Positions 2-17,807 of a stretch of DNA of 64,000 nucleotides are shown piece by piece (the first letter of the stretch is position 1; every line of letters begins with the position of its first letter). The position numbers and the translations under genes are program-made. The notes beneath the pieces are model-generated. The model was not told the DNA's origin, did not search any database, and saw nothing but the letters and a program-made list of their open reading frames with translations. Origin of the DNA: Elusimicrobiota bacterium (GTDB lineage Bacteria > Elusimicrobiota > Elusimicrobia > UBA1565 > UBA9628); contig JACRDQ010000020.1 in the NCBI GenBank assembly GCA_016218545.1, positions 34,455-98,454 of the forward strand, given 5' to 3'.

Positions 2-2269
2 CTGTCCGAGCCCGAGTTCCGGGGCCTGGTGCGGGCCGCCAAGGAGCTCCGGGCAGGAGCCGCCTTCTTCACGCACCCGCTGTTCCGCAGGCAGCGCCTC
101 CTCCTGGCCGGGAAGGTGCCGGGCCTGGAGACCGCGGTCTGGACCGGCGGCCTGCTCCTGGCCCGGGACCTCATGGCCAGGCTGGGCCTGCCGCTCGGCC
201 CGGAGGGCTTCCATCACGAGGACGTGCTCACGGACCCGGAGGCTGCGGCGGACTACCGGTGGGAGCCGGGCAACGCGGCAGCCTCGGCCCCGGGACACGA
301 CGTGGTCTATCTCTACACCGGCTCGGACTGCGCCTACCGGCGGCCGGTGGCAGGCAACCCCTGCTACGCCGGAGTATCGCTGCCTCCCTCGGCCCACGCC
401 TTCGGCTGCGCCTTCTGCGGGGACCGCCAGGACCGGCCGGCGCCGGGGCCGACCGTGTCCGCCGCGTGGATCGAGAAGCAGATCCGGGACCTCACCGCGG
501 GCCGCAGGCCGGGCCAGCGGCCCGCCGCCCTGGTCCTGCCCGACGTAGGAGACGCGGAGCTCCTGGCCAAGACCATGGCCAGCATGCGCCGCCGCGGCAT
601 GGGCAAGACCCCCCTGCTCATGGGCGTGCGTCTCGACCGCCTGCTCCGGGTCAGGCCGGCGCTCGAGGATCTCCTGGCCGGCATGAGCAAGGGCGAGTCC
701 ATCCACTGCGTCACGGTCGGAGCGGAGAACTTCGCGGCGGACGAACTCCGGCGCTTCAACAAGGGCTTCGAGCCCTTGACCGTGGTCCGCGGGATCAACC
801 TCCTCAAGGAGCTGGAGGCCTCGCAAGGCGGCAGGTTCCTCTATTCCGGGTACAAGCCCCTAGCCGTCATCCTGCTGACCCCTTGGACGCGGCCCTGCGA
901 CCTGGCCTACAACCTCCGCCTCATCCGGCACTTCAAGCTCGAGGACGAGGCAGGCAACCTCTTCAGCTCGCGCCTCCGCCTGCACCCGGAGCTGCCCATC
1001 ACCTCCCTGGCCGCCAAGGACGGTCTCCTGGGCAGGACGCCGGACCGCGCCCTGGCCATGGCCAGGCGCAGGCTGGAGCGTTCCGAGCGCGGCTGGCGCT
1101 TCAAGGACCCGCGCATGGAGCCGGTCAACAGCCTGGCCGGCCGGCTCGAGCGCAGTCCCTCCCTGGCCGGAGACCGCCTCTACGAGGATATCCAGAAAGG
1201 CCTGGCCTGGACCGAACGCGACAAGGGCCAACTGACGGACATCCTCTTGGCCTCGGCCAGGCTCGCTGACTCCTCCCCAAAGCCCATCCCCGCAGAGAAG
1301 CTCTTCGAGTCCAGCCTGGCGGCCTGGCGCGCCGGGCCGGCACCCCTGCTCCCCGGCAAGCGCCTGGGCCTCGAGCTCCTGGGACCTGCGGAGTACGTGG
1401 AGCGCTGCCTGGCCCTGGTCCATCAGGGACCCAGAGCCGCCTTGTCCCTGGAAGGCCTGCCTCCGGCCGCCGAGCTCAAGGGCCTGGCAAGGACCGGCCC
1501 TGGCCTACACGCCAAGGTGGTGGAGCGAGGCCCGGCCTCCACGCTCTACGCGGCCCGCGACGCCAAGACCTTGGAGCGCCTCATCCGCCTGGAGAGCGGG
1601 CCCAAGGCCAAGCAGGCTCGAGCCTCGACCATCAGCGAGCTCGGGAAGCTCTACGGCTACCCCTCATGCTGCGTCCGGGCCTGGCTGAAGAACCCCTGGC
1701 GCCAAGGAGGCTTCAGCGAATGGCTGGCGCTCCTGACCCGCGCAGCTTCTCCGGGCCCGTGCCCTGGCCTGCACCTGCCCCTCCTGGTCTCGGACTTGGC
1801 TTTCATCCCCTGCTCCGCCCAGTGCCGGGCCGCTGAGGCTGCCTGCCGGTCCTGGTTCAAGGCCCTGGGAGGCTCCCTGACCGCGAAGGCCCTGTCCGAC
1901 AGGGTCTTCGTGCACTCCCTGCTGGACCGGGCGGACGGCGCCTCCTTCATCCCCGGGTCGAGGCAAGGAAGGGTCATCCGCTACGACCCCTCGAGCGTCA
2001 CCGGCACTGAGGGCGGTGTGGCCGCGTGGCTCAGGAAAGGGGACCGGCTCGAGCAAGACTGCGGCCAGGTCTCGGTCTTCAGGGGCGAGAAGGCCCTGCG
2101 GCGCTGGGTCGCGGAAGCCGCGGTCTGGGACAGACAGGCCATGGCGGACCCTGAGTTCTGGGTCGAGCTCGCAGCCGCGGCCCTGAGACGCTCAGGGCCG
2201 GCCGGCGTCCGCCAACCGCGCCTCAAGCATGCTCACCAGGCCGGTCAGCAGCTTCTTCTCAGCCTCTGA
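2..2269 (+). CDS. Large uncharacterized protein with C-x10-C-x13/14-C-x2-C-G motif, possibly a non-canonical Fe-S or radical-SAM-like enzyme. 5' end is outside the window. Paralogue of the convergent gene at 2192-4240.
   Basis: Frame is open from the window edge and reads as a real protein. Carries motif SDCAYRRPVAGNPCYAGVSLPPSAHAFGCAFCG and a shared TPWT motif. Clear paralogy with the next gene. Overlaps the convergent gene end by about 78 bp. Confidence 0.5.
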   Translation: MSEPEFRGLVRAAKELRAGAAFFTHPLFRRQRLLLAGKVPGLETAVWTGGLLLARDLMARLGLPLGPEGFHHEDVLTDPEAAADYRWEPGNAAASAPGHDVVYLYTGSDCAYRRPVAGNPCYAGVSLPPSAHAFGCAFCGDRQDRPAPGPTVSAAWIEKQIRDLTAGRRPGQRPAALVLPDVGDAELLAKTMASMRRRGMGKTPLLMGVRLDRLLRVRPALEDLLAGMSKGESIHCVTVGAENFAADELRRFNKGFEPLTVVRGINLLKELEASQGGRFLYSGYKPLAVILLTPWTRPCDLAYNLRLIRHFKLEDEAGNLFSSRLRLHPELPITSLAAKDGLLGRTPDRALAMARRRLERSERGWRFKDPRMEPVNSLAGRLERSPSLAGDRLYEDIQKGLAWTERDKGQLTDILLASARLADSSPKPIPAEKLFESSLAAWRAGPAPLLPGKRLGLELLGPAEYVERCLALVHQGPRAALSLEGLPPAAELKGLARTGPGLHAKVVERGPASTLYAARDAKTLERLIRLESGPKAKQARASTISELGKLYGYPSCCVRAWLKNPWRQGGFSEWLALLTRAASPGPCPGLHLPLLVSDLAFIPCSAQCRAAEAACRSWFKALGGSLTAKALSDRVFVHSLLDRADGASFIPGSRQGRVIRYDPSSVTGTEGGVAAWLRKGDRLEQDCGQVSVFRGEKALRRWVAEAAVWDRQAMADPEFWVELAAAALRRSGPAGVRQPRLKHAHQAGQQLLLSL

Positions 2270-4240
2270 CCACACCGGGGTCTGGGCCAGGTACACGGCC
2301 TTGAACCTCCGCGTCTCGAAGAAGCAGGGCCCCTGGCTCTGCCGCTCCTTGAGGTCGAGCACGATCCTCCTGTCGTCCAGCAGGACGTTCAGGCGGAATG
2401 CGCGGCCAGGACACCCGCGGAAGGACGCGGCTGACACCGACTCGAGCTCGAGCTTGGCCGCGACCTTCAGCTCTTTGCGGACCTGCGCCACTGCGCGCTG
2501 TTCAGCGGAGGACGGCTTGGAGAGGACCGGAGGATTGTCCTCCCCTGCCAAGGGCTCGGGAGCGCCGGCATGCGCTCTTTTGACCCGCGCCACAGCCTCG
2601 GCCAGGAGGCCCGTCCTCGACCACGTCTCCTGAGCGCGCTCGAAGAGCTCCAGGAGCTCCAGAGCCGCCTCGAGGATGCTCCACGGAGGCCTGGTCGTGC
2701 GGCCTGAGCACGCTTCATCCCGGAACACGCTCGACAAGAGGTCGTATTCCGGGTCTCCGCGGAACAGGGTTCGCGCCTCGGGACACTCCATGGCGACATA
2801 GAGCCGGACGAGGATGCGGAAGAAGTCCGCGACCTTGCGGTCCTTGAACCGCCAGGGCATGGAGCTCCACAGCACCTGGAGACCGAAGCATGGATAGAAG
2901 AGGAGCCCCGGGTCCTCGTACTCGGGGAGGATGACGCCGCCCTCGTGCTCCGCCAGAGCGGCCAGGGCGGTCCCTTTACGGAGCATCAGGCTCGTGCAGA
3001 GCCACAGCCCGTTGCCGTCGAACCCGCGGCGGCCGGCCTCCCGGAGGTTCACGCGGAGTTCCGCGAGCGTGGTCCACGGGGTGAACAGGAGCATCAGCCA
3101 GTTCCTGCCGTCCCCCCGCGCCTGGAAAGCCTTCGGCCAGCGCCGGCTCCAGCCCGCCATGAGCCTGAAGACCTCGTCCACCTGGGCGATGGAGATGTCC
3201 TTGTTGTAGAGCCTCATGACCGCTGGAGAGAAGTTCTCGATGCCCATGACCTCGAAGCTCATCCGGTGCCCGGCTGCCGCGGCCTTGGGCAGGACCGCCG
3301 AAATGCGGCTCCGGGATGAGAGGACGTCGTCGATGCGCGGGCAGAAGACGAACCGGGCCGGCCTCAGGCCGATGCGCAGCACCATGTCGAAGAAGAGGTC
3401 GATGCGATGGAAGAGGCCGAGGTCGTAGACGATGTAGGCGCCCCGGCTCCTGGATTGCCGAGGCCCTCCCCGTGACGCGGCCTTGAGCTGGCGCTCAGCC
3501 AAGTCCAGGGAGCCGGCCTGGTGCCCGGCCAAGGGCCCGGTCTCGATGGAGCCCCCGCAGAAGCTGCACCCGGGAGGAAGGTCCGGCGCGCCCACCACTC
3601 CCCTGAAGCAGGGGTTCTTGGCGGGAGAGGGCCTGCCCCTGCAGCTGCGGCCTCCCAGGATGATCACCGGAGGGCCGTCCTCGGCCTTGGCCATGGCGCC
3701 CACGGGCGCGGCGCGGTAGTCGGGCTCCACCGCGTCGAGGACGGACCTGCCCTCCCCTGGATGCGGACCCGCTCCCAGCCACCTGGAGAACCAGCCGGGC
3801 TCATGGGTGAGTTCCCGCCCCTCGCCCTTGCCCCTGACCAGCCTGAGGTAGGGGTCGAGCTCCGGGTCGTGCTCGCCCCACCGGAGAGCCTCCATGTCGA
3901 ACTCGCAGGGAAGGACCATGAAGCGCCGCGCTCCAGAGGCGCGGACCGCGGACCGGACCCCCGGGACGAGGAGCTCGTTGGAGACCACGTGCGTGGGTCG
4001 GAAGGCCTTCAGCCTCCTCTTGAGGACCTCGAGGTCCCCCCTCTCCAGGCCGGCCCGGAGCACGCGGCCGAGCGGCCGCTCCCACGCGATGCCGGTCCTG
4101 GCCTTGAAGAAGAGCCACTGGGCCGGCACGCCGCAGTCCCGCGCCACCCCCTTGAAGAACGGATAGAACATGGAGGTCTCGCGCCGGTCATCCATGCTCG
4201 AGAGGAACTCCAACAGCAGCAAGCGGGGGTTCGGACTCAC
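2192..4240 (-). CDS. Large uncharacterized protein with C-x10-C-x13-C-x2-C-GG motif, paralogue of ORF 2-2269.
   Basis: 682-aa ORF. Motif RSCRGRPSPAKNPCFRGVVGAPDLPPGCSFCGG and an LLFTPWT motif are shared with gene 1. GTG start at 4240 lies 5 nt after the upstream stop, with an alternative ATG at 4195. Same-strand operon with the genes at 4246-7965. Confidence 0.55.
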   Translation of the reverse strand: MSPNPRLLLLEFLSSMDDRRETSMFYPFFKGVARDCGVPAQWLFFKARTGIAWERPLGRVLRAGLERGDLEVLKRRLKAFRPTHVVSNELLVPGVRSAVRASGARRFMVLPCEFDMEALRWGEHDPELDPYLRLVRGKGEGRELTHEPGWFSRWLGAGPHPGEGRSVLDAVEPDYRAAPVGAMAKAEDGPPVIILGGRSCRGRPSPAKNPCFRGVVGAPDLPPGCSFCGGSIETGPLAGHQAGSLDLAERQLKAASRGGPRQSRSRGAYIVYDLGLFHRIDLFFDMVLRIGLRPARFVFCPRIDDVLSSRSRISAVLPKAAAAGHRMSFEVMGIENFSPAVMRLYNKDISIAQVDEVFRLMAGWSRRWPKAFQARGDGRNWLMLLFTPWTTLAELRVNLREAGRRGFDGNGLWLCTSLMLRKGTALAALAEHEGGVILPEYEDPGLLFYPCFGLQVLWSSMPWRFKDRKVADFFRILVRLYVAMECPEARTLFRGDPEYDLLSSVFRDEACSGRTTRPPWSILEAALELLELFERAQETWSRTGLLAEAVARVKRAHAGAPEPLAGEDNPPVLSKPSSAEQRAVAQVRKELKVAAKLELESVSAASFRGCPGRAFRLNVLLDDRRIVLDLKERQSQGPCFFETRRFKAVYLAQTPVWSEAEKKLLTGLVSMLEARLADAGRP

Positions 4241-4245
4241 GGGCT

Positions 4246-6879
4246 TCAGTCCGGCATGGCCTCAGGGAAGAGGCCGGCCATGCGCGTGAAAAAGGCGGAG
4301 CAGAGCCTCCCCATCCTCATCTGGCTCTCGAAGATCGCGGCAGCCTCGGGCCTGCGGGACGCGGCTCTCCTCATGCTCTCGATGTGCGCGTCACGGTCGC
4401 GCCTGAGTTCCTCCAGACGCCCGATCGCGGCGATCTTCCCCACCCTGTTGACCTTCTTCATCTCGGGCAGGACCTTCTCCACGGGCAGGGTGCACCCGAT
4501 GTACACGGACCCGTCCGTGTCCACGGTCAGGCCGCGCGAGGCGAGGAGGGGCTCGTCTGCGGTGTTGGTGAGGTTGGCCAGGCCCATGCGCCGGCCCGAG
4601 GCCCGGAGCCTTCCCAGCAAACGATAGACCTCCTCGAGATAGCGGCGGCCGGCCTCCCCGGTCCAGAGCCCCCCGACCTCGTAGAGCAGGTCTAGCTCCC
4701 TTACCCCGAGCTCCGCGAGGTACATGCCGTTGTCGCTCAGGCGCCCCACGCCTGCGGGCCGCACGACCATGCTGGCCTGCACGTGCCAGCCCGATCTCAG
4801 GGCCCGCTGGAGGTTGGCGAGGAGCTTGCGGTAAGGATAGGACACGCCGGAGTCACGCAGGGGCCGATACTCGCCCTGGGTCAGGCGGTCGCCGTCGATG
4901 CTGAAGATGACGCGGACCTCATGCTTCCTGAGGAAGTCGAGGGTCTCGGCGTCCAGCAGGAGGCCGTTGGTGGCCACGGAGCAGAACGCCTGCCTGCCGA
5001 ATTCCAGGGCCCTGGCCCTCACCTGGTCCGCCGCCTCAGCCACGAGGTCGCGGCGGAGCAGGGGCTCCCCGCCGAAGAGCTGGATGTCCACGCTCGGGCC
5101 CGGCCCGTCGATCATGAGGTCGATGGCGCGGCGCAGGACCTCCCGGGACATGTCCGGACCCCGCCGGACGAGCTGGCAGTAGCGGCACCCCATCTGGCAG
5201 CGCCGGGTGAGCATGGGCATGAGACTGCGCAGGGAAGGGAACGCCCCGGCCGCGCCCGCGTGCCTGGACTCGGGCGAGCGCAGGGTCCCTCCCTGGCTCT
5301 GCGGCCGAAGGTCGCGGCAGAAGCGGTCCTCCGAAGCTCCCTTCGCGCCCTTCCCGAAGAAGACCCCGTAGCGCTCGCAGGGGAGGCAGGCCTTGTGCAG
5401 GGTCCGGAACGAGGGCCGCCGCCCCTCGCGCAGGTCCGCGGCCATATCGAGGAGGAACGGCGAAGGCGGCCGCACGCACGCGTTCTCCGCCCGGCCCAGC
5501 TTCATGAGCGCCTCGATCTCCGGCCCGGAGAGGTGCTTCGAGGAGGTCACCACCGGGGCGCCGGCCCGGTGGCTCCGGCAGTAGTCCCGGAAGGACCGGA
5601 CGGGGCTCTTGATGCCCAGGGACTTGCCCTGCAGGTGCCAGGCCGAACCCGGATCCAGGGGAATGCGCTCCATGCCGAAGTCCGCGCCGGGGAAGCGGTC
5701 CGCCAGCGAGCGGACGAGGTAGAGGGTCTTGGCCGCGTGGACCGCGGTCTCGCCCGGCAGGCCGGCCGTGAAGTTGATCTGCGGCTTGATCCCGCGGTCC
5801 ACCATCAGCCGGACCGCGGCCACGAGCGCCGCGTTGGTGAAGGATGCTCCCTTGTTGCGGCGCCGGACCTCCTCGGACCCGCACTCGGGAGCGACCGCCA
5901 GGGTCCCCCTTCCCGGGAAGGTCCTGCTGAACTCGGCGATGAACTCCTCCGTGGGCAGGCCGAAGCACTCGAAGGCGGAGGTGAGGCTCAGCTTCCTGCG
6001 GCGCATGGCCCGGAAGAGCTCCGGGTAGAACCGCCCCCCGGGCGCGGGATCGAAGTTGAAGTGGACCGTGCCGATGCCGTGGTCCGCCAGGGCCTCCAGG
6101 TCCGCGAGCACCGAATCCCGGGACGCGAAGAGCACGCCGTTCCTCTTGAAGAGCATGCGCTGTTGGGCCGCGCCGCCTCCGCAGTAGGTGCAGTCCTGGA
6201 CGCAGCCCCGGCCAGGCACGCAGAAATAGACCGGAGCCCGCTCCGCGCCGGGGTCGAAATCCGTGGACACCAGGGACAGGTAGCGCTCGTGATGCCGGAT
6301 GAGGCGGAAGTTGGTGAACCTGAGCCGGTCGAAGAGACCCTGCGTCACCGTGTAGGACTGCGGGTTGTGGACGACCTCTCCGCGCCTGCGCCAGCTGAGG
6401 TTGGACACGTACCCGAGGTCCGCTCCGGGCCGGTCCAGGGCAGCCAGGAGCACGGCCAGGGGGAGCTCGGGGTCTCCGCGCACGATGAAGTCCACCTCCG
6501 GGAAGGAGCGCATGATCTCGTCCGCGAAGAAGGTGGCGGTGAACCCGCCGAGGACCGTCCGGCAGCGCGGCGCCGCCTTCTTGACGCCGCGGGCCGCTTC
6601 GATCACGTCGTGGCTCTGGGGGTGCCAGTACAGGTCGAAAAGGGCGGCCGAGTAGCCCCCGTCAGCCACGAACGACGGCAAGTCGAAGCCCGGGTCCAGG
6701 GTCTTCTCGAGCCCGGCATGCACCACGGACACGTCCCGGCCCGTCCTGACCAGGAAGTCCGCGATGGCGGGCAGGCCCACCGGGAGGAGCTTGGTCGGTC
6801 CCTCGATGCCTCCGCCCTTGGGGACGTGGATGAAGACCGCTCTGCCTGCTCCCGCTCGCGGTCCGGCCGACTCTCTCAT
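4246..6879 (-). CDS. Didomain radical-SAM protein. N-terminal half is a B12-binding-type radical SAM (CVQDCTYC, GLPGET). C-terminal half is a second radical-SAM domain of anSME/SPASM type (CQMGCRYC, FGGEPLL).
   Basis: 877-aa ORF with two separate CX3CX2C motifs about 420 residues apart. N-terminal Rossmann-like B12 region (FIHVPKGGG...) and a C-terminal GGEPLL glycine-rich SAM-binding motif. Confidence 0.7.
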   Translation of the reverse strand: MRESAGPRAGAGRAVFIHVPKGGGIEGPTKLLPVGLPAIADFLVRTGRDVSVVHAGLEKTLDPGFDLPSFVADGGYSAALFDLYWHPQSHDVIEAARGVKKAAPRCRTVLGGFTATFFADEIMRSFPEVDFIVRGDPELPLAVLLAALDRPGADLGYVSNLSWRRRGEVVHNPQSYTVTQGLFDRLRFTNFRLIRHHERYLSLVSTDFDPGAERAPVYFCVPGRGCVQDCTYCGGGAAQQRMLFKRNGVLFASRDSVLADLEALADHGIGTVHFNFDPAPGGRFYPELFRAMRRRKLSLTSAFECFGLPTEEFIAEFSRTFPGRGTLAVAPECGSEEVRRRNKGASFTNAALVAAVRLMVDRGIKPQINFTAGLPGETAVHAAKTLYLVRSLADRFPGADFGMERIPLDPGSAWHLQGKSLGIKSPVRSFRDYCRSHRAGAPVVTSSKHLSGPEIEALMKLGRAENACVRPPSPFLLDMAADLREGRRPSFRTLHKACLPCERYGVFFGKGAKGASEDRFCRDLRPQSQGGTLRSPESRHAGAAGAFPSLRSLMPMLTRRCQMGCRYCQLVRRGPDMSREVLRRAIDLMIDGPGPSVDIQLFGGEPLLRRDLVAEAADQVRARALEFGRQAFCSVATNGLLLDAETLDFLRKHEVRVIFSIDGDRLTQGEYRPLRDSGVSYPYRKLLANLQRALRSGWHVQASMVVRPAGVGRLSDNGMYLAELGVRELDLLYEVGGLWTGEAGRRYLEEVYRLLGRLRASGRRMGLANLTNTADEPLLASRGLTVDTDGSVYIGCTLPVEKVLPEMKKVNRVGKIAAIGRLEELRRDRDAHIESMRRAASRRPEAAAIFESQMRMGRLCSAFFTRMAGLFPEAMPD

Positions 6880-6885
6880 AGGGTC

Positions 6886-7965
6886 TCAGGAGGACCCCGG
6901 CGCGGCCCGGACGCATCGCTTGGCCACGGACGCGCAGTAGTCGCAGGATTCGCAGCGCCCCTTGCAGCGCATGACCCGCGAGACGAAGCCCTTCGGGATG
7001 AGGCGGTTGTCGCACGACACCAAGCCCTTGGCGTAGACCTCCTCGTCGCTGAACAGGGTGAAGAGATTCCCGTCGAACCTGCGGTCGAAGTAGGCCGTGA
7101 GGACGCCCTTGAGCCGCTCCGAGGAGTCCTCCCTGTAAGCGACCTTGAAGACGTCGGCCAGGCCGTGCCGCTCGTAGTAGCCGAGGTCCTCGGGCCGGAT
7201 GAAGGGACGCCGGATCTCGTCAGCTCCGCGGTCGCTCTCGAAGAGGCACCGGTCATGGTCGAGCCGGCCGCCCAGAGTCTCACGCCAGCCGCGGGGAGAC
7301 CACGCCTCGAGGACCCCCCTCAGGACCCCCCAATCCGCGTGCCTCCAGGCGTAGGGGCAGCCCTGGTAGCAGCGGAGCACGCCCAGGAGCTTGACCCTCA
7401 AGCGCGGGAACGCGGCCTTGAGCCCGGCGATGTCCTTGAGCGCGGCGAAGTCCCGGTTGATCTCCGGGTCCACGCACAGGCTGGTCACCCCCAGACGCGC
7501 CGCGGCCCGAGCCTTGACCAGGGAGTTGACGCCCATGTAGATGGAGGATTGGACCGCGATCGCCGGGAACTCCTTGCGCAGGAGCGGGACCAGGGCCGGG
7601 TCCGAGACCGTGACGCAGGTCAGGCCCGCGTCCCGAGAGAGCCGCCGGACGCCTTCGAAAATGCGCCTTATGTCGTCGAAGAACAGGGGGTTCTTGTTGA
7701 GGAGGAGGTTGGTCCCGATGCCCTGGCCGCGGCAGAAGCGCGCCAGAGCCGCGACCTCCGCGTAGCGCAGGGGCTCGAGCCCGACGTAGGCAGAGGAGAA
7801 GTCGCAGCCCTGCCAGCCGCCGAAATAGACCTCGCAGACCTGCCCGGACAGGGAGGCCCAACGGACCAAGCCCAGGTCGCCGTTATAGGGGATGGAGAAG
7901 AGGATGCGGCCGTGGCCCTGCACAGGTAGAGGATAGGTTCTCCCCACCCCCCCGTCAAGGCGCAT
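6886..7965 (-). CDS. U32-peptidase-like TIM-barrel protein with C-terminal Cys cluster, a putative Fe-S enzyme.
   Basis: The ILFSIPYNGDLGL...EVYFGG stretch resembles the U32 ELLAPAG...AVYLGG core. LRCYQGC and C-terminal CKGRCESCDYC...C Cys-rich motifs are present. First gene of the minus-strand operon. Start lies only 14 bp from the divergent gene, so it may be internal. Confidence 0.4.
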   Translation of the reverse strand: MRLDGGVGRTYPLPVQGHGRILFSIPYNGDLGLVRWASLSGQVCEVYFGGWQGCDFSSAYVGLEPLRYAEVAALARFCRGQGIGTNLLLNKNPLFFDDIRRIFEGVRRLSRDAGLTCVTVSDPALVPLLRKEFPAIAVQSSIYMGVNSLVKARAAARLGVTSLCVDPEINRDFAALKDIAGLKAAFPRLRVKLLGVLRCYQGCPYAWRHADWGVLRGVLEAWSPRGWRETLGGRLDHDRCLFESDRGADEIRRPFIRPEDLGYYERHGLADVFKVAYREDSSERLKGVLTAYFDRRFDGNLFTLFSDEEVYAKGLVSCDNRLIPKGFVSRVMRCKGRCESCDYCASVAKRCVRAAPGSS

Positions 7966-7979: not shown

Positions 7980-9179
7980 ATGGACCGGCAAGGCCCAGCC
8001 GAGGACCCGCTCGACAACACCTGCAACCTGACCCTCATCCTGACCCGCGCCTGCCAGCTGGCCTGCGCCTACTGCCGCATGAATCGCGACCCAGGGGCGG
8101 TCATGGAGGAGCCCGTGCTCCGCAGGGCCGTGGACCTGCTCATGGCCGGCCCCAGCCCGCAGGTCGCCCTGGATTTCTCGGGTGGAGAGCCCCTGCTGAG
8201 ATTCGACCTCCTCCGCCGGGGGCTCCTCTACGCCGAGGAAGCGGCCAAGGCCAAGGCCAAGAGACTGCGCTTGGACCTCAGCACCAACAGCCTGCTCCTC
8301 GACGAGCGCAAGGCCGGGTTCCTCATCGAGCACGGGGCGCGCATCCATGTCAGCTCCGACGGGAGCCTGGCCACCCACCGCCGCAACAGGCCCCCTGTCT
8401 CAGGGCCCTCCTCCGCCGCGGCCAGCCGATGCCGCCAGAGCATGCGCCTCCTGGCCAGGCTCGGGGTCCAGTTCGACGCGACCATGGTCGTCTTCCCCAA
8501 GGACGTCCGTTCCATGGTCGGCAACGCAGGAGCCCTCATGGACGCGGGCGCCAGCGTGGTCCAGATGGACTGCGCCCTGGGCATGCTCTGGAGCAGGGAG
8601 GAAGCCTCGGGTTTCGCGGAAGGCCTGGCCGCGGCCGCGCTCGAAGCCAGGCGCCGCCGCGCCAAGGGGGCGCGGGTCGCGGTCGAGAGCTCGTGCTTCG
8701 GCAACCCGGACATCAACAGCGTGCTCATGGCCATCGAGACCGACGGGACCATCCTCATGGGGTGCACCCCGACCATCGAGAGGGAGTGCCCGGGGCTTGC
8801 GAAGCTCCTGAGGTTCGGTTCCGTCAGGGCCCGCAAGAGCCTCGAAGGGCTGCGGCGGACCCCGTCCGAGCTGGCGCGGTTCATCCTGGACCGCATGGGA
8901 CCGGGGCGCGAGCGGGCCCTCTACGTCAACAACATGGTGGTGGGGCTCTCGACGCGCAAAGCCCTGGCGCACCGCGGCCTGGCCCCGCTCCCCGGTAGGG
9001 CCGCGACAGGGACGGCCTCAGGACCGGCCCGTCCCAGCCGGCCAGGACCTTGGGCGGGCAAGAACGCCGAGCGCTGGATCCTCGCCGAGCTCGCATGCCT
9101 CGAGGCGCAGGCCGGGGACATGCCGGGCCGCGGAGCATGGGACGGCTCGGGCGAGGAGGAGAAGGCCGGTCTCAGGTAG
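7980..9179 (+). CDS. Radical-SAM protein of anSME/SPASM-like subfamily.
   Basis: N-terminal CQLACAYC (CX3CX2C) at residues 25-32 and an FSGGEPLL motif. Extra Cys residues near the C-terminus (SSCFGNP...GCTPTIERECPG) suggest an auxiliary cluster domain. Confidence 0.7.
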   Translation: MDRQGPAEDPLDNTCNLTLILTRACQLACAYCRMNRDPGAVMEEPVLRRAVDLLMAGPSPQVALDFSGGEPLLRFDLLRRGLLYAEEAAKAKAKRLRLDLSTNSLLLDERKAGFLIEHGARIHVSSDGSLATHRRNRPPVSGPSSAAASRCRQSMRLLARLGVQFDATMVVFPKDVRSMVGNAGALMDAGASVVQMDCALGMLWSREEASGFAEGLAAAALEARRRRAKGARVAVESSCFGNPDINSVLMAIETDGTILMGCTPTIERECPGLAKLLRFGSVRARKSLEGLRRTPSELARFILDRMGPGRERALYVNNMVVGLSTRKALAHRGLAPLPGRAATGTASGPARPSRPGPWAGKNAERWILAELACLEAQAGDMPGRGAWDGSGEEEKAGLR

Positions 9180-10302
9180 CCGGGAGGTGCAGGTCTCCCT
9201 TGCGGTCGAGCCTGCCCTGGAGCCCTGTCCGGCGCCATCGTCGTCGAGGATCGAGGCGGACAGAGCCTCCGGTAGGGACTCGGCCCGTCATGACCGCCTT
9301 GCTCCGGACCGCGACCTCGCCTGAGCGTCCGGGAGGCTTGGCCCGGCCCCTGGAGTCGAGGATGCGGACGTCGCACCCATGCAAGGGCCTGCCCACGCAG
9401 CCGGGAGGCCGCGCTCCCAAGCGGGCTTGAGTGGAGGAGACGGGTCCGGACTCCGCTGCGCTCAAGAGCGCTACCACCGGGACCCCCGAAGAGGACTCGA
9501 ACGCCCTGGCCTCCCGCTCAGGGAACGGCCCGCCGGAACATCGGACCCAGCGGACCCCCTCAGGGAAGGCCGGGCTCCCGGAGCCCATGGTCTTGCGGAG
9601 GAGGAGGGTCAGCATGCTCGCCGGCAGGTCCAGGGCCCTGACCCGGAGCCTCTCGAGCGCGGGCCCGGCCGAGGTCTTGAGGAGGGACGCTCCCCCGAGC
9701 ACGAGGCTCCCTCCCCTCAGCAGGGCGCAGACAGCGTCCAGGAGCGCCGGGTATGCGCGGCCTGGCCAGAGGCACCACTCAGCCCCGGCGCCGAGAGGCT
9801 TGAAGCGTTCTGCCAAGGCTTCGGCTCCCGCCAGGAGCGAGCTCTGCGTGTGCACGGCGCTCCTGCCTTCGCCCAGGAAGGAGACCAGGGGGTCCTCGGC
9901 CCGCGCCGGCGCAGTCGGGCCGGGAGAGCGTGTGCCTGGGACCCGCAGCATGGCCCGGACGTCCCGACTCCTCACGACCAGCCTGGGCCTAAAGACCTTG
10001 AGACCGGCCGAGACCCGCGGCTCCGGCAGGCCCGGGTCGAGGAAGGAAGCGCAGGCTCCGAGCCTGGCGCAAGCCAGAAGGCTCACGACGACCTGCAGGT
10101 CATCCTCGAGGACGAAGGCCACGCGGGCCCCGCGCCCCGCGCCCTGCGCCTCGAGCCCGGCGGCGGCGCGCTCAGCCGCGGCGCAGGCCTCCTGGTAGGT
10201 GCAGACCGAGCCTGTCGAAGCGTGGATCAGGTAGGGCTGGGAACCCTTGCTCCGTGCCCCGCGGAGCAGGAGGCCCGACAAGGTGTCCTGCCTCTTACCC
10301 AC
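9172..10302 (-). CDS. Adenylate-forming (AMP-binding) enzyme-like protein. Short, with a degenerate phosphate-binding loop and no C-terminal subdomain.
   Basis: N-terminal region matches the AMP-binding fold (TYQEACAAAERAAAGL...RVAFVLED...LACARLGA). A8-like GEVAVRSKAVMTG and W-x-x-TGL motifs are present, but the ORF stops soon after. Start overlaps the upstream radical-SAM stop by 8 nt, which indicates coupling. Confidence 0.5.
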   Translation of the reverse strand: MGKRQDTLSGLLLRGARSKGSQPYLIHASTGSVCTYQEACAAAERAAAGLEAQGAGRGARVAFVLEDDLQVVVSLLACARLGACASFLDPGLPEPRVSAGLKVFRPRLVVRSRDVRAMLRVPGTRSPGPTAPARAEDPLVSFLGEGRSAVHTQSSLLAGAEALAERFKPLGAGAEWCLWPGRAYPALLDAVCALLRGGSLVLGGASLLKTSAGPALERLRVRALDLPASMLTLLLRKTMGSGSPAFPEGVRWVRCSGGPFPEREARAFESSSGVPVVALLSAAESGPVSSTQARLGARPPGCVGRPLHGCDVRILDSRGRAKPPGRSGEVAVRSKAVMTGRVPTGGSVRLDPRRRWRRTGLQGRLDRKGDLHLPAT

Positions 10303-11851
10303 GGCTTCCTTGTCCGACAGGCAGACCCAGAGCCGGCCGCACGCCGCGGAACAGCCGCTCGCTCTCCCCTGGCTTGAGGAGGTCCGCCGCGTCCAGGGTG
10401 AGGAAATGGCGGTCCCGCGGAGGACGCGCCCGGAAGCGGAGCCAGGCGAGGTCCAGCGCCTTGGAGGCTCCCGGGTCGAGCCGGGACACGAGGTCCGAGA
10501 AGACGGAGGTCACGGACCCGCGGCCTTGAGCGGCGAGCTCCCGCATCCTGGCCCCGGTCTCTCCGTGGTTGACGAGCAGGTAGACCTGCAGGGTCAGGCG
10601 CTGGAGAGCTTCGAGCTCCCTGCCGGGCAGGGTGCTCGTGGCCAGGACGAAATAGGGGGGCCGGGCCATCTTCTCCGTCACCTCGGGCTGTCCCGCCAGG
10701 CGAGAGCCCGGCAGGGCCTGGCAGGCGAACACGAGCAAGCGGACACTGGGCACGGCCAGCACCGCGTCGAGGCCCTTCAGATAGCTCTGCCGGGTCTCGC
10801 CCGGAAGCCCGCAGATGAGGTTCAGGAGGATTTCGGCCTTGGGCCGCCTGCCTGCCAGGCCGGCCAAGGCGGCATCAAGGGCTTTGCGGACAGGGCCGCG
10901 GCCCGCCAGGCGCAAGGCCCGGGAAGACAGGGATTCCACGCCCACGGTCAGCTCGAAGCAGGGGTGGTCGAAGACGTCTAGCACCGCAGGGGTCAGGCGG
11001 CGCAAGCCCGCCTCGAGGACCCACCTGGGCCCGCCTTCGACCCGACAAGAGCGCATGAAGCGGCCCAAGCGCAAGGCCCTGGGAGTGTCCAGGAAGAAGT
11101 CCGAATCGGCAAGGAAGACCCGCTCCAAGGACATGCGGGAAGCCAGCCTGATCTCGCGCCTGACCCTCGTCTCCGGGAACCAGCTCACCTGCCTGCGGCT
11201 GGCCCACGCGCAGTAGCTGCACTTCATGGGACAGCCTCGCGCGTTCTCGATGGCCGCCGACGTGCCCGGCTCAGGGACCCCCTGGAACACGGCCTCGCTC
11301 CAGGCTGAGGGAAGGCTCCCGAGGCGTTCGACGAAGACCCCCGCGGGCCCCTGGCAGGGCCTGCCGTCCCGGAGCGTCACCGTGCCCGGCGTGCCGGCCC
11401 AAGCCTCGCCCGTGAGGCTGCGGCCCAGGAGTTCGACCCAGGCTGACTCGCCCTCGCCGAAGACCAGGGCATCGGCCCCCGCGCGCAGGAAGAGGTCCTC
11501 CCTGCCCGCTGCGACCTCAGGTCCGCCCACCGCGACCCGGACCGAGGCCAGGCGCTTCTTGAGGCCGGCGACCAGGGCCAGGACCGGCTCGGTGTTCCAG
11601 ACATAGCAGGACAGGCCCACGACCCGCGGCCCGTAGGCCGCGACCTCCTTGAGCACGCGGCCGGGGAAGCCCTCGGAGGTCCCGGGCTGGCAGCGGAAGG
11701 TCCGGCACTCGAGCCTGCGGCCGAAGGTCCGGCTGGTCAAGGCCTGCAAGCCTCCCACGGCAAGAGGAAGGTAGCGGCCCTCCGCGGTCGCGTCGGAAAC
11801 GCTGATCAAGGCCGCCCTGGGAGGGCGCGCTCGGCTCATCGGAGCTATCAT
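10295..11851 (-). CDS. B12-binding-domain radical-SAM protein.
   Basis: N-terminal B12-binding-like region (VGLSCYVWNTEPV...VAVGGPEV), canonical GCPMKCSYC motif and a downstream GLPGET motif. 518 aa. Confidence 0.7.
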   Translation of the reverse strand: MIAPMSRARPPRAALISVSDATAEGRYLPLAVGGLQALTSRTFGRRLECRTFRCQPGTSEGFPGRVLKEVAAYGPRVVGLSCYVWNTEPVLALVAGLKKRLASVRVAVGGPEVAAGREDLFLRAGADALVFGEGESAWVELLGRSLTGEAWAGTPGTVTLRDGRPCQGPAGVFVERLGSLPSAWSEAVFQGVPEPGTSAAIENARGCPMKCSYCAWASRRQVSWFPETRVRREIRLASRMSLERVFLADSDFFLDTPRALRLGRFMRSCRVEGGPRWVLEAGLRRLTPAVLDVFDHPCFELTVGVESLSSRALRLAGRGPVRKALDAALAGLAGRRPKAEILLNLICGLPGETRQSYLKGLDAVLAVPSVRLLVFACQALPGSRLAGQPEVTEKMARPPYFVLATSTLPGRELEALQRLTLQVYLLVNHGETGARMRELAAQGRGSVTSVFSDLVSRLDPGASKALDLAWLRFRARPPRDRHFLTLDAADLLKPGESERLFRGVRPALGLPVGQGSRG

Positions 11852-11868
11852 ACAATAAGGACGCGTCC

Positions 11869-11897
11869 TTGACGCCCCTGGGACAAAGACTTATACT
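11869..11897 (+). promoter_or_regulatory. Sigma70-like promoter (TTGACG-17 nt-TATACT) for the B12 radical-SAM gene at 11909. Near-leaderless.
   Basis: Hexamers at 11869-11874 and 11892-11897 with a 17-nt spacer. The ATG lies about 5 nt after the predicted TSS. A GGACGCGTCC palindrome abuts the -35. Confidence 0.4.
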
Positions 11898-11908
11898 GGG
11901 CGCATTCC

Positions 11909-13516
11909 ATGCGGCGCCTCGACTGCGTCCTGTTCTTCCCCCCTCCAGGCGCCCAGTTCCAGGTCCCTGAGATCGGCCTCCCCCAGCTGACCTCATTCCT
12001 AAGAACGCAGGGAGCCGCGTGCGAAGCCGTGGACCTCAATCGGACCTTCATGGAGGACTACCTCTTCGGCCGGCAGGACCAGGTCCGGGAGCGCGTGGCC
12101 CGCAGGCTCGGCCGGGCCAAGGGCCGCCCGCTCCTGAAGGTCCTCGACGCCGAGGATTTCCTCTCCCTGGATTTCTCCAAGACGGCCAACCACTCCTACA
12201 GCTTCATCGCCGACGACGCGGCCGAGCTCTGGAACGAGCTCCTGGCGGTCAACGCGGACCGCTACGACATCGCGGACGTCGTCCGGAGCGCGAAGCGCGG
12301 CGACGCCCTTTTCGACCCTTTCTACCGGGAGCATGTCCGGCCTTGGGCCCGGCGGACCGGGCTCGTGGGGTTCTCGGTCGAGACCAGCCACCAGCTCGCC
12401 TCGGCCCTCCACTTCTCCAAGAGGATCAAGGCGGACCGGCCCGGGACCAAGGTCGTGCTCGGCGGGACCTGGTTCATCTGCACGCGCCCTTTCCTGAAGC
12501 CCTTCAGCGCCGTCTTCGACTTCGCGGACTTCGTGGTGCCGGTCGAGGGCGAGCGGCCCCTGCTGGACCTCATCAGGCTCCTGCGCAAGACGCCCTCCCC
12601 CGCAGACGCGGAGCTGCGGCGGGTGGCCGGGCTCGTCCTGCGCTCAGGAGACCGGCTCGTAGACACCGGCGACCCGAAGCCCGTGCCCATGGCCAGCCTG
12701 TCCGCGGGGGATTTCGCGCACTTCAAGCCCGGCCGCTTCATCGGGAGCCAATACCCCGTGCTCAGCACCAAGGGCTGCTACTGGAACCGCTGCCGGTTCT
12801 GCTTCCACTCCTACGCCGGCGTGGAGACGCGCTCCAAGACGGCCGGGCAAGTCCTCAGGGAGATGAAGCAGGTCGTGTCCCGCTACCGGCCCAAGGAGAT
12901 CGAGCTCGCGGACTCCGCTGTCCCGCTCTCCCTGCTCAAGAGCCTCCCCGCAGGGATGCGGCGGCAGGGACTGAAGGTGCCTTGGACGGCTCTCGTGCGC
13001 GCGGACGAAGGCCTCACCCGGCAGGACCTTGGACGCCTCAAGGCCTCGGGCTGCCTGAACCTGGGCATCGGGCTGGAGTCCGCGGACCCCGCGGTCCTGC
13101 GCCGCTCCGACAAGGGCATCCGCTTGGAGGTCCTGGACCGGCTCCTCGACGAGGCCTCCCAGGTCGGGCTGAGGGTTTCCCTCTTCCTGATCTACTTCCC
13201 CTTCGAGGATCGGCGCTCCTACGAACGCAGCTGGCGGTACGTGCTGGACCGGCGGGACAAGATCGCGGATGTCTCGGCCCAATACCTTTTCCTGGGCAGG
13301 AACAGCCGCCTCTTCGCTGAGCCGGGCCGGTGGGGCTTGAGGCTCGCCAAGGGCTTCGAGCAGGACACCCGCTCGTTCTGGCTCCCCTACTCCTGCCGCG
13401 GAGCCCTGTCCAAGGCCGAGTTCTACGCCTTGACCTCCGAGAAGTTCCGCCTGTTCTACGAGCGGTCTGAGCGCGGGCTCGCGCTCAGCTCGGCTCCCGC
13501 CGCAGCTTGTCCTTGA
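11909..13516 (+). CDS. B12-binding-domain radical-SAM protein with variant CX4CX2C motif.
   Basis: 535-aa ORF. Motif KGCYWNRCRFC. N-terminal Rossmann-like region (KVVLGGTWF). Diverges from the previous radical-SAM gene across a 57-bp spacer carrying a sigma70-like promoter. Confidence 0.65.
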   Translation: MRRLDCVLFFPPPGAQFQVPEIGLPQLTSFLRTQGAACEAVDLNRTFMEDYLFGRQDQVRERVARRLGRAKGRPLLKVLDAEDFLSLDFSKTANHSYSFIADDAAELWNELLAVNADRYDIADVVRSAKRGDALFDPFYREHVRPWARRTGLVGFSVETSHQLASALHFSKRIKADRPGTKVVLGGTWFICTRPFLKPFSAVFDFADFVVPVEGERPLLDLIRLLRKTPSPADAELRRVAGLVLRSGDRLVDTGDPKPVPMASLSAGDFAHFKPGRFIGSQYPVLSTKGCYWNRCRFCFHSYAGVETRSKTAGQVLREMKQVVSRYRPKEIELADSAVPLSLLKSLPAGMRRQGLKVPWTALVRADEGLTRQDLGRLKASGCLNLGIGLESADPAVLRRSDKGIRLEVLDRLLDEASQVGLRVSLFLIYFPFEDRRSYERSWRYVLDRRDKIADVSAQYLFLGRNSRLFAEPGRWGLRLAKGFEQDTRSFWLPYSCRGALSKAEFYALTSEKFRLFYERSERGLALSSAPAAACP

Positions 13517-17803: not shown

Positions 17804-17807
17804 AATT

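Follow-up and report, generated by a model that had tools for sequence, protein, structure and literature searches.

The fused gene and its neighbours

The window analysed here, a 64-kb stretch of Elusimicrobiota DNA, carries at positions 4246-6879 of its minus strand an open reading frame that begins with ATG and, from the ORF list and its translation, encodes 877 amino acids plus a stop codon. The strand was absent from an earlier note on this DNA, which had been made from the letters alone. The product is identical to a database protein (P0001) named by NCBI as 'MAG: radical SAM protein [Elusimicrobia bacterium]'. It contains two CX3CX2C motifs, GCVQDCTYC (residues 225-233, nt 6181-6207) and RRCQMGCRYC (residues 559-568, nt 5176-5205), the second followed by FGGEPLL (residues 602-608, nt 5056-5076). 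Two CX3CX2C motifs in an 877-aa ORF are far above chance expectation. The earlier note had reported both, at a spacing of about 420 residues; the distance from C226 to C561 is in fact 335. Pfam Radical_SAM (PF04055) matches two separate stretches of the protein (E 1.9e-26), the strongest covering residues 557-706.

The upstream operon partner (6886-7965, minus strand) encodes a 359-aa U32-like protein with a weak Pfam U32 match and a C-terminal CX4CX2CX2C motif, and its stop lies 6 nt ahead of the fused gene. It is 40% identical to the product of a Pfam-annotated U32 gene found immediately upstream of a homologue of the N-terminal half (N-type) in locus L012, and the gene is also present in L003 and L011. 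The downstream operon partner (2192-4240, minus strand) encodes a divergent radical-SAM-like protein of 682 aa (g682) with a CX13CX2C motif. It is a paralogue of the window gene at 1-2269, and its family (about 650-720 aa) is found in many Elusimicrobia MAGs, some members having Radical_SAM matches. On the plus strand, 7980-9179 encodes a free-standing, 399-aa paralogue of the C-terminal half (tblastn 31% identity, E 1.6e-30), which has the same HMM profile as that half and, like it, HxsB as second-best NCBIfam match. 'Pseudo-SAM/SPASM' families are among the weak NCBIfam matches of this paralogue. An AMP-binding enzyme is encoded in the same locus, with an SAH hydrolase close by. PDB sequence searches with three uncharacterised neighbours returned nothing significant. 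A PADLOC scan of the window gave generic viperin-like similarity only, so a known defence system in the window is unsupported.

Domain annotation with Pfam and NCBIfam assigns the N-terminal half to B12-binding/radical-SAM proteins and the C-terminal half to PapB-type maturases. A full-length MAFFT alignment (A1) was dropped, C-half homologues having been set on the first CX3CX2C motif, and the two halves were therefore modelled separately.

The N-terminal module

The module opens with a B12-binding-type Rossmann domain (residues 30-144, nt 6448-6792, minus strand), recognised by the model fold and by Pfam PF02310, whose 30.2 bits are slightly below the gathering score of 32.1. Radical-SAM core 1 follows (residues about 215-440, nt 5560-6237, minus strand), and its CX3CX2C cysteines C226, C230 and C233 (nt 6181-6204) are invariant in alignment A3. 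The motif, the Pfam stretch and the barrel model place the module in the radical SAM superfamily (PF04055). In the structure model a Rossmann domain is joined to a barrel, with a mean pLDDT of 84.8 (mostly 84-96 in core 1). Foldseek matches it to TsrM, MgmA, CysS, TokK, AprD4 and OxsB (E 6e-20 to 1e-14, TM 0.56-0.67) at sequence identities of just 11-16%; AprD4 is annotated there only as a diol dehydratase. The fold match extends across both domains, as in class B enzymes, with PF02310 itself borderline, and the B12-binding context that had been claimed for the first motif is borne out. By its fold the module would be a class B (cobalamin-type) enzyme, and cobalamin binding is predicted. The DxHxxG motif was sought in the module and is absent; its presence or absence is not decisive for cobalamin use in class B radical SAM enzymes.

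The best NCBIfam model for residues 31-435 is TIGR04190 ('B12-binding domain/radical SAM domain protein', B12_SAM_Ta0216), with 166.4 bits against a curated equivalog cutoff of 500. Judged by this score, the module belongs to a related family and is not a member of TIGR04190. Its C-terminal tail (residues 441-510, nt 5350-5559, minus strand), delimited from alignment A3 and a regular-expression census, holds the subfamily cysteine motif C468...C498-x2-C501-x6-(F508), in which the last cysteine is a phenylalanine here and a cysteine in the orthologue P0002. The motif may form an auxiliary metal site. The idea that the N-type family corresponds to the archaeal GDGT ring synthases was set aside.

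The C-terminal module

Radical-SAM core 2 (residues about 549-720, nt 4720-5235, minus strand) contains C561, C565 and C568 (nt 5176-5199) and FGGEPLL. These motifs and a barrel model with a pLDDT of 89.8 place it in the same superfamily (PF04055), and the second motif thus lies within a confidently modelled radical-SAM fold. The conserved positions of the C-half in alignment A2 (half numbering) are G67, G68, E69, P70, T101, N102, G103, S124, D126 and G127. NCBIfam aligns residues 550-759 to PapB-type maturases, and the top matches of the half are PapB, HxsB, nif11 and SCIFF maturases. Every NCBIfam score is far under its family cutoff, including those of the PapB family ranthipeptide maturase NF047865 (102.2 bits, cutoff 340) and HxsB TIGR03978 (81.4 bits, cutoff 370), and the module is a member of neither family. 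A phmmer comparison with CteB (5wgg) gives E 1.3e-11. The top Foldseek matches are CteB, anSME and ChlB (TM about 0.7 for CteB and anSME), followed by TigE, SkfB and SuiB; DesII, BlsE and viperin, which are without auxiliary clusters, are also among them. The closest sequence and fold likeness of the module is therefore to the SPASM-lineage core of anSME, CteB and PapB.

The C-terminal domain of this module (residues 721-877, nt 4249-4719, minus strand) was examined through the module alignment, a list of cysteines, the model and its fold matches. It consists of a beta-hairpin remnant of a SPASM/twitch domain (VDTDGSVYIGC, nt 4492-4524) followed by helices. SPASM/twitch domains are defined by about seven cysteines, including CX2CX5CX3C, that ligate one or two auxiliary [4Fe-4S] clusters. 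Compared with the SPASM-bearing homologues P0019, P0022 and P0017, the domain has lost the CX2CX5CX3C block. C796 and C860 are its only cysteines, with one hairpin cysteine left, and a Pfam scan of the fused protein gave no match to PF13186 (SPASM). Since this segment is deleted, the module cannot hold SPASM auxiliary clusters. The description of the second domain as SPASM-like is thus correct for its core and fails for the cysteine-rich part; FGGEPLL, which had been read as typical of anSME/SPASM enzymes, is the general GGE SAM-binding motif and no marker of SPASM. The CX3CX2C motif begins about 13 residues past the linker, there is no N-terminal RRE, and the fused protein has no RRE/PqqD match in Pfam.

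Integrity of the fusion

The modules are joined by a linker rich in Gly, Ser, Arg and Ala (residues about 511-548, nt 5236-5349, minus strand), recognised by its low pLDDT (under 50 where the two half models would meet) and by a coding frame that is kept throughout. From residue 21 onwards, through the linker and up to the stop, third-position GC remains at 0.85-1.00 without a change of frame, and nothing in this unbroken signal points to a frameshift. The identical 877-aa protein also comes out of Logan, an independent read assembly. A second Elusimicrobiota MAG encodes a fused orthologue (P0002, 871 aa) that is 76% identical overall and 53% identical in the linker, which is without indels, at a nucleotide divergence of about 22%. 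Between the two, dN/dS is 0.22-0.39 in the domains, equally low in the radical-SAM cores (0.27 and 0.33), and 0.73 in the linker, and both CX3CX2C triads and the GGE, TNG and SxDG motifs are conserved, as they are across each family. A frameshift or stop near the junction, the event that would have undone the fusion, was sought in three assemblies and none was found. The profile HMMs, the two confident structure models, the fold searches and the conserved fused orthologue together establish, as the earlier note had proposed, one genuine polypeptide in which two radical-SAM domains are complete and the first of them has a B12-binding context.

Distribution of fused and split relatives

The exact pairing of this N-type with this C-type module is confined to a single cluster at 50% identity out of 1.84 billion representatives. 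Proteins matching at E <= 1e-30 number 488. Of the 150 best relatives, 21 carry two to four CX3CX2C motifs, and multi-radical-SAM relatives sit in arrays of 13-15 radical-SAM genes each. P0099 combines an N-type with a SPASM-type radical-SAM domain, P0216 has a B12-binding domain, a CX3CX2C motif and two C-type modules, P0085 and P0087 have four motifs each, and P0113 has four Radical_SAM stretches; P0093 is full-length in five assemblies or more. As judged from these sequences, fusions of two to four radical-SAM enzymes are frequent in related arrays and the exact pair is rare, so that the label 'uncommon' suits this pairing and not its sequence neighbourhood. Literature searches on double radical-SAM proteins and on TIGR04190/Ta0216 returned almost nothing beyond FbiC and Tes/MJ0619.

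As to whether orthologues are split in other genomes, P0002 is fused, and a GTDB genome scan for further orthologues found nothing besides the known orthologue contig. A split version in the same order occurs in locus L004, where the N-type gene (10001-11563) is separated by a 34 nt gap from the C-type gene (11597-12637), the pair being only 30-37% identical to the fused protein, too low for an orthology call. A metagenome scan with the N-type alignment gave 80 loci, most of which share no partner gene of the window, and the commonest neighbours of the N-type homologues in them are unannotated genes. This scarcity of shared partners indicates that the broad N-type family is diverse in context, and the neighbours offered no lead on function.

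Related loci

Relatives of both halves are associated with His-Xaa-Ser repeat peptides. An HxsA4-type (HGS)n peptide gene heads a 13-gene, C-type-rich operon in L005, and L001, the only examined nitrogenase-like (NFL) locus with an N-type gene, encodes HxsD and HxsA4 at 0.3-1.5 kb downstream of that gene. In the canonical system, HxsB and HxsC mature an HxS-repeat protein (PMC13128918). An HxsA repeat protein and HxsD share a locus in L001 and L005; in six-frame translation of the window neither an (H-x-S)n repeat nor an HxsD homologue was found. A search of the window for a precursor (HxS regular expressions, a 'GQW*' ending, tandem repeats, small high-GC3 ORFs in gaps) was likewise negative, and the combination of an RRE-bearing RiPP maturase with an adjacent precursor gene does not occur in it.

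Other relatives are linked to nitrogenase-like genes. The g682-family member P0263 is fused to a NifD/K-like domain within a large NFL locus that also holds a C-type module and the window's rSAM-TPR family, and in L008 the g682 family comes directly after NifDKH-like genes. Searching the 64-kb window by tblastn with NFL proteins of L001, L008 and L010 revealed no NifH/D/K homologue, and the NifH-like and NifD/K-like genes of a Group VI NFL locus are accordingly absent from it. NFL loci of groundwater Elusimicrobia have up to 13 radical-SAM genes and a predicted role in tetrapyrrole reduction, and radical-SAM genes fused to B12-binding domains have been noted in them, according to a preprint (bioRxiv 10.1101/765248). 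In a 2026 listing, the function of Group VI NFL loci was not yet assigned (PMC13474568). In further contexts, a TP_methylase gene adjoins the C-type homologue P0045, and the U32-like/N-type gene pair of L012 lies amid glycosyltransferases, a DegT aminotransferase and APH, in a sugar-type cluster.

Proposed function

The reading that we favour, and consider rather probable as a whole, is that selection maintains the fusion, in which both radical-SAM modules are catalytically competent and a flexible linker, about 40 residues long, connects them. The fusion would probably have originated when neighbouring genes of a multi-radical-SAM biosynthetic array were joined. The data above show the architecture, the folds, conserved motifs, purifying selection acting on the two halves, and the genomic associations; we infer the two chemistries, their order and the substrate as follows. 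With a [4Fe-4S] cluster and SAM of its own, each module would produce a separate 5'-deoxyadenosyl radical. For the N-module, the most likely chemistry would be methylation of an unactivated carbon or a related cobalamin-assisted reaction. The C-module, of the SPASM/twitch maturase lineage, has lost its auxiliary-cluster cysteines, which suggests a step that needs no auxiliary cluster for electron removal; most likely this would be initiated by H-abstraction, for example an epimerisation, a redox-neutral rearrangement or a reductive step. The tether would pass one substrate between the active sites, which would act in turn, in keeping with the two sequential radical reactions that the earlier note had reasonably suggested, and the enzyme would work in an operon with the U32-like and the divergent radical-SAM-like proteins.

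For the substrate, a ribosomal peptide or protein is the leading guess, held tentatively and at not quite an even chance, by analogy with the related arrays that carry HxsA4 His-Xaa-Ser repeat peptides. Counting against it, the window has no HxS-repeat peptide, no HxsD or other obvious precursor and no RRE-like domain, and several contexts point away from peptides, namely the sugar-type cluster of L012, the nitrogenase-linked g682 family and the AMP-binding enzyme in the locus.

The main alternative retains the architecture and supplies it with a small molecule or cofactor precursor, which could be a sugar/nucleotide-type metabolite or else a tetrapyrrole-like product connected with the Group VI nitrogenase-like reductases. 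We regard this as a reasonable possibility, although not the one to be expected. It is favoured by the two nitrogenase-linked occurrences of the g682 family, by the C-type module and rSAM-TPR family inside the P0263 locus, by the tetrapyrrole reduction predicted for Elusimicrobia NFL loci in the preprint (bioRxiv 10.1101/765248) and the still unassigned function of Group VI NFL (PMC13474568), by the TP_methylase gene next to P0045, by the company of the L012 pair, and, in the window, by the lack of both precursor peptide and RRE and by the AMP-binding enzyme and SAH hydrolase close by. On the other side, NifH/D/K homologues are missing from the window, peptide or protein maturases account for all of the C-module's best relatives in sequence and fold, and L001 encodes HxsD and HxsA4, so that linkage to NFL is compatible with a peptide.

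A protein in which a single half works as a radical enzyme and the other is a pseudo-enzyme for substrate docking or scaffolding seems improbable. The C-module, for example, would be inactive after the loss of its SPASM clusters, or the B12-like domain of the N-module would be purely structural. The absence of every SPASM cluster ligand from the C-module, the loss of one of four conserved cysteines from the N-module tail (F508), the sub-threshold B12-binding score and the 'pseudo-SAM/SPASM' matches of the 399-aa paralogue would fit such a protein. Both CX3CX2C triads and SAM-binding motifs are nonetheless intact and conserved in both orthologues and in each family, dN/dS is as low in one core as in the other, and the cluster-less SPASM-lineage relatives among the fold matches (DesII, BlsE and viperin) are solved enzymes. 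An artefactual joining of adjacent radical-SAM genes by frameshift, sequencing error or chimeric assembly is highly improbable and already largely refuted: such errors do occur in MAG assemblies, the syntenic contig L003 (coverage 0.86x) shows the 682-aa gene nearby as two parts of 315 aa and 370 aa that lie in different frames, and N-type and C-type genes are separate and adjacent in L004, but the frame-specific GC3 signal is unbroken through the junction, independent reads give the same product, the diverged P0002 is fused identically, and the linker evolves as coding sequence.

Beyond the fusion of two competent modules favoured here, we also raise, as an unlikely and speculative extension, that the enzyme belongs to a class of 'radical-SAM assembly lines' not described before. 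Such lines would consist of arrays with as many as 13-15 radical-SAM genes, many of them joined into two- to four-domain polypeptides, in Elusimicrobiota, Omnitrophota and other uncultured bacteria. Their substrate might be a His-Gly-Ser repeat peptide (HxsA4-type) or a product derived from it, remodelled in repeated rounds, conceivably in some genomes together with Group VI nitrogenase-like reductases. If this were true, the cofactor predicted for Group VI NFL loci would be peptide-derived rather than a tetrapyrrole.

The fused protein is not a new kind of enzyme, because both halves belong to well-known superfamilies and FbiC is a precedent for a double radical-SAM protein. It offers a clean, conserved case in which a SPASM-lineage module minus its auxiliary clusters is covalently tethered to a radical-SAM module of the cobalamin type, and an entry point to poorly described multi-radical-SAM polypeptides and gene arrays. 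It also connects, at the genomic level, such arrays with HxsA4 His-Xaa-Ser repeat peptides and with Group VI nitrogenase-like loci, the canonical His-Xaa-Ser system having recently been shown to be an antiphage defence. The gene itself sets partner identity and stoichiometry, which makes a fused two-module enzyme practical for biochemical work.

Comparison with known systems

Two complete radical-SAM domains in one chain constitute an FbiC-type architecture, the analogy being one of architecture only. To our knowledge, FbiC has neither a B12-binding domain nor a SPASM-lineage module. The CofG, CofH and FbiC models are absent from the best 25 of the 63 NCBIfam families matched (E <= 1), so homology to CofG and CofH is not indicated among these 25. 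The CofG and CofH parts of FO synthase are fused as FbiC in many bacteria and encoded by two genes in archaea (PMC11917521), a situation like that seen here, with fused genes in the window and in L003 and split ones in L004. Tes / GDGT-MAS (MJ0619), a radical-SAM protein, also has two CxxxCxxC motifs, for which two active sites have been proposed (PMC8941075; PMC5943407). No homology between it and the fused protein was detected, and here the motifs belong to two separate complete radical-SAM folds, 335 residues apart.

The N-half resembles the class B enzymes TsrM, MgmA, CysS, TokK, OxsB and AprD4 over both the Rossmann domain and the barrel, and differs from them in its 11-16% identity, its additional C-terminal Cys-motif tail and the fused second radical-SAM module. 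The C-half shares with the SPASM/twitch maturases CteB, anSME, PapB, ChlB, SkfB and SuiB the core and part of the C-terminal domain, and differs in being without auxiliary-cluster cysteines, a PF13186 match or an N-terminal RRE.

The radical-SAM suite of Group VI NFL loci comes from the same phylum and habitat (groundwater Elusimicrobia), and in such loci the rSAM-TPR and g682 families occur, as do a C-type module and, in L001, an N-type homologue. It differs in that the 64-kb window is without a NifH/D/K homologue and that double radical-SAM polypeptides are not described in the available part of the preprint (bioRxiv 10.1101/765248). In the HXS antiphage system (HxsA, HxsB, HxsC, HxsD), a radical-SAM pair matures a His-Xaa-Ser repeat protein (PMC13128918), and relatives of both halves occur in loci encoding HxsA4 and HxsD. 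The window has neither HxsA nor HxsD, and the HxsB score is 81 bits against 370. The canonical system consists of four genes and is 99.7% Pseudomonadota, whereas the arrays related to the fused enzyme have up to 13-15 radical-SAM genes and come from Elusimicrobiota and unclassified metagenomic contigs.

Architecture of the fused protein

The fused gene is a single 877-codon ORF that begins with ATG (4246..6879, minus strand). Its product naturally joins a class-B-type module to a SPASM-lineage module lacking auxiliary clusters; the fusion is conserved, a flexible linker separates the modules, and each has its catalytic motifs intact. Both CX3CX2C motifs quoted in the earlier note are present (motif 1, GCVQDCTYC, residues 225–233; motif 2, RRCQMGCRYC, residues 559–568), although their spacing is 335 residues instead of the approximately 420 claimed. 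Motif 2 is followed by FGGEPLL (residues 602–608), which is a general GGE SAM-binding motif. Pfam Radical_SAM matches two separate stretches (E 1.9e-26) and Fer4_12 spans motif 2, while the B12-binding match at residues 30–144 scores 30.2 bits, slightly below the gathering score of 32.1. Among NCBIfam models, residues 31–435 align with the ‘B12-binding domain/radical SAM domain’ family TIGR04190 (166 bits; cutoff 500) and residues 550–759 with PapB-type maturases (102 bits; cutoff 340), the next matches of the C-half being HxsB, nif11, SCIFF and further peptide maturases. No NCBIfam family cutoff is reached by either half. Judged from these profiles, both halves are members of known superfamilies and of no curated family.

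The two halves were modelled separately (residues 1–520 with 12 sequences; residues 537–877 with 41 sequences), because a joint alignment put C-half homologues in the wrong place. In the PDB, the N-half model (pLDDT 84.8, pTM 0.86) best resembles cobalamin-type radical-SAM enzymes, namely TsrM, MgmA, CysS, TokK, AprD4 and OxsB (E 6e-20 to 1e-14). The C-half model (pLDDT 89.8, pTM 0.88) best resembles CteB, anSME, ChlB, TigE, SkfB and SuiB and, after these, DesII, BlsE and viperin; a sequence search finds CteB as well (E 1.3e-11). The confident match to CteB and anSME refutes the possibility that motif 2 lies outside a radical-SAM fold. Residues ~511–548 look like a flexible linker, since the low-confidence parts of both models are the ends adjoining the junction. 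The tail of the N-module carries a CxxCx6C[F/W/Y] motif (residues 498–508; window positions 5356–5388) that is conserved in the closest subfamily, but its last Cys is Phe here. The fused protein reads VFF and its orthologue VCF, a one-base difference, and the Phe is either a genuine ligand loss or an error.

The description of the second domain as SPASM-like holds for its core, which is of SPASM lineage, but not for the SPASM cysteine block, which is gone; Pfam finds no SPASM domain in the fused protein. In the C-half alignment, the SPASM/twitch cysteines are kept in the distant homologues P0019, P0022 and P0017 and in the second domain of P0099. The CX2CX5CX3C block is wholly absent from the fused protein, its orthologue, the paralogue at 7980–9179 and all the closest modules, where the beta-hairpin (VDTDGSVYIGC) is all that remains and contains one Cys or none. 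The C-terminal domain of the fused protein has two Cys (C796 and C860), neither of them family-conserved. Given the missing block and these unconserved residues, the C-module is a SPASM-lineage core incapable of holding SPASM auxiliary clusters.

Conservation of the fusion

A frameshift or sequencing error that fuses two genes is largely refuted by the continuous coding frame, an identical independent assembly and an indel-free linker in an orthologue. The window has a GC content of ~69%, and the local coding signature is a GC3 of 0.92 with a second-position GC of 0.50 in the fused ORF. In 40-codon windows, the GC3 of that frame lies at 0.85–1.00 everywhere from residue 21 onwards, residues 430–560 among them, and gives no sign that the frame shifts at the junction. 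An identical protein of 877 aa is on record for an Elusimicrobia MAG (102-kb contig), and run SRR12113407, assembled independently by Logan, also yields it. An 871-aa orthologue (P0002) is found in a syntenic locus of a second Elusimicrobiota MAG, SO_2017_GW1_178 (contig JBAZSR010000211.1), sharing 76% identity with zero indels past the extreme N-terminus; the individual domains are 73–78% identical, the linker 53%. Nei–Gojobori dN/dS between the two genes is 0.28 in the B12 domain, 0.27 in core 1, 0.39 in the tail, 0.33 in core 2, 0.22 in the C-terminal domain and 0.73 in the linker. Purifying selection acts on both halves while fused. With two Pfam stretches, confident models of both halves and a fused orthologue, the reading of two complete radical-SAM domains in one polypeptide stands.

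On the syntenic contig (L003; coverage 0.86x), the orthologue of the downstream gene g682 (2711–4779) is called as two genes of 315 and 370 aa in different frames. All other g682 homologues are 650–720 aa, so a frameshift in the assembly most likely accounts for the two calls; the double radical-SAM gene there is intact.

Genomic neighbourhood

The neighbourhood of the fused gene is dominated by radical-SAM enzymes. The gene is the middle member of a tight minus-strand operon. Upstream, a U32-like gene (6886–7965) ends 6 nt before it; the 359-aa product bears CX4CX2CX2C at its C-terminal end. Downstream, g682 (2192–4240; 682 aa) starts after 5 nt. A g682 paralogue on the plus strand (1–2269) runs off the window start and is 814 aa long in the Logan assembly locus L011. 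No Pfam family covers the core of either protein. Each contains a non-canonical CX13–14CX2C motif (NPC...GCSFCGGS in one, NPC...GCAFCGDR in the other), which is CX13CX2C in g682, and an ‘ENF..NK’ motif that recalls radical-SAM enzymes. On these motifs, both proteins are probably divergent members of the radical-SAM enzymes.

Divergent from the operon is a free-standing C-half paralogue (7980–9179, plus strand; 31% identity). It is followed by a shortened AMP-binding (ANL) enzyme of 376 aa (9172–10302, minus strand) that overlaps each neighbour by 8 nt and matches acyl-CoA ligase profiles in its N-terminal and late-core parts, the middle and C-terminal subdomain being absent. Two more B12/radical-SAM genes lie beyond it. 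Within 24 kb of the fused gene are also an S-adenosylhomocysteine (SAH) hydrolase, an rSAM-TPR protein, a creatininase-family protein and a LonB-like protease. The SAH hydrolase (17804–19183, plus strand) is typical and has four SAM-consuming genes only a few kb away; it may reflect a heavy methyl-transfer load, or may be plain housekeeping. The 798-aa rSAM-TPR protein (21371–23767, plus strand) is a radical-SAM protein with C-terminal TPR repeats, and is a further component common to these arrays, since its radical-SAM part has homologues in three loci of relatives (L001, L004 and L010). The creatininase-family gene (23757–24620) adjoins the gene for the 1,194-aa LonB-like protease (24613–28197, minus strand), whose AAA and protease domains are confined to the C-terminal 480 residues, leaving a long N-terminal region unannotated. 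Further along, two stretches of ~1 kb each (39494–40491 and 41110–42053) are without a confident gene. High-GC3 plus-strand ORFs at 39609–39959 and 40002–40298 have odd Arg/Ser/Thr/Pro-rich translations, and may represent a disrupted gene or the antisense of something unrecognised.

Rarity and multi-radical-SAM relatives

The earlier note called such fusions uncommon, which is true of the exact pair: when 1.84 billion cluster representatives were searched exhaustively with phmmer, the full-length architecture at >50% identity came up in one cluster only (P0002). It is not true of multi-motif polypeptides, as 21 of the 150 best matches have 2–4 CX3CX2C motifs. The N-half family comprises 488 representatives at E ≤ 1e-30, mainly free-standing proteins of 450–520 aa. 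Domain mapping and Pfam identify tandem C-type modules (two in P0088, three motifs in P0093, four in P0085 and P0087) and tandem B12/radical-SAM modules (three in P0092 and P0117; four Radical_SAM stretches in the 1,903-aa P0113). Mixed forms are P0099, an N-type module with a true SPASM-type radical-SAM domain, and P0216, a B12 domain and CX3CX2C motif with two C-type modules. At least five independent assemblies contain P0093 at full length, and several of them carry the annotation Candidatus Omnitrophota MAG. Radical-SAM module fusion is thus recurrent in these families, though the exact pair is rare. The metagenomic P0085, P0087, P0113, P0092, P0117 and P0139 contain 3–4 complete radical-SAM modules in up to 1,903 aa, P0113 with an additional MiaB-type UPF0004 domain; no description of these giants was found in the searchable literature.

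The closest N-type and C-type homologues sit in radical-SAM arrays of 15 (L004) and 13 (L005) consecutive genes. A split counterpart of the fusion order does occur elsewhere: in L004, a C-type gene begins 34 nt behind an N-type gene. The U32-like/N-type pair is kept in L012, where the U32-like gene again lies immediately upstream and its product shares the Cys motif and 40% identity. Its surroundings (glycosyltransferases, a DegT-type aminotransferase, APH and a SPASM radical-SAM gene) resemble a small-molecule setting, a pointer away from a peptide substrate. More weakly, a U32-like gene also lies directly upstream of the N-type gene in L038, L048 and L072, and the two may be a functional couple. 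The window's partner genes are absent from most of 80 further metagenomic loci with N-type homologues.

Nitrogenase-like loci and His-Xaa-Ser repeat peptides

In L001, NifD-like and NifH-like genes and a further six radical-SAM genes precede the N-type gene, a locus of the kind outlined for Group VI nitrogenase paralogues of groundwater Elusimicrobia (bioRxiv 10.1101/765248). The function of these paralogues was still unassigned in a 2026 review (PMC13474568). The g682 family is widespread in Elusimicrobia MAGs; one member (P0263) is fused to a NifD/K-like domain in a nitrogenase-like locus that also has a C-type module and the rSAM-TPR family, and elsewhere the family directly follows NifDKH-like genes. 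No NifH/D/K homologues were found in the 64-kb window.

Just downstream of the N-type gene, L001 encodes HxsD and HxsA4-type proteins (12341–12760 and 13008–13325). The HxsD scores 51.5 bits against a cutoff of 50 (TIGR03976). A 105-aa protein ending in ...HGSHGSHGSHGSHGSHGSHGQW exceeds the cutoff of the NCBIfam HxsA4 model (68.5 bits; cutoff 55). L005 begins with the C-terminal part of a comparable (HGS)n-HGQW peptide (2–130), which directly precedes 13 radical-SAM genes. HxsA4-type His-Gly-Ser repeat peptides ending in HGQW thus occur in or at the head of arrays of 7–13 radical-SAM genes, in L001 together with Group VI nitrogenase-like genes. Immediately before the L001 N-type gene, the intergenic gap contains a short ORF (9829–9855) for HFSHGSHDSYGQW, which may be another HxS-type peptide of minimal size. 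In its canonical four-gene form, the HXS system was recently shown to be an antiphage defence in which HxsB and HxsC mature an HxS-repeat effector, and is 99.7% confined to Pseudomonadota (PMC13128918). These arrays suggest an expanded HXS-like peptide-maturation system outside that phylum, and a peptide link is possible for the Group VI nitrogenase-like loci. The 64-kb window contains no HxS repeat, HxsD, tandem repeat or precursor-like small ORF.

Proposed function and precedents

The core reading of the earlier note is right; its mechanism is what we infer. Each half would produce its own 5′-dA radical, the N-module for cobalamin-dependent methylation or related chemistry and the C-module for a hydrogen-abstraction step that would not need an auxiliary cluster, with the two acting in turn on a single substrate. 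A peptide or protein is tentatively favoured as that substrate, a small molecule or cofactor is a lesser but real possibility, and something else is unlikely. The main value of the fusion is that it points to wider, largely undescribed multi-radical-SAM arrays, and to the ties that these arrays have to HxsA4 peptides and to Group VI nitrogenase-like loci. The nearest functional precedent is FbiC, a fusion of CofG and CofH that has two radical-SAM domains in one chain (PMC11917521). Tes/MJ0619 is a precedent solely for two CxxxCxxC motifs in one protein (PMC8941075, PMC5943407).
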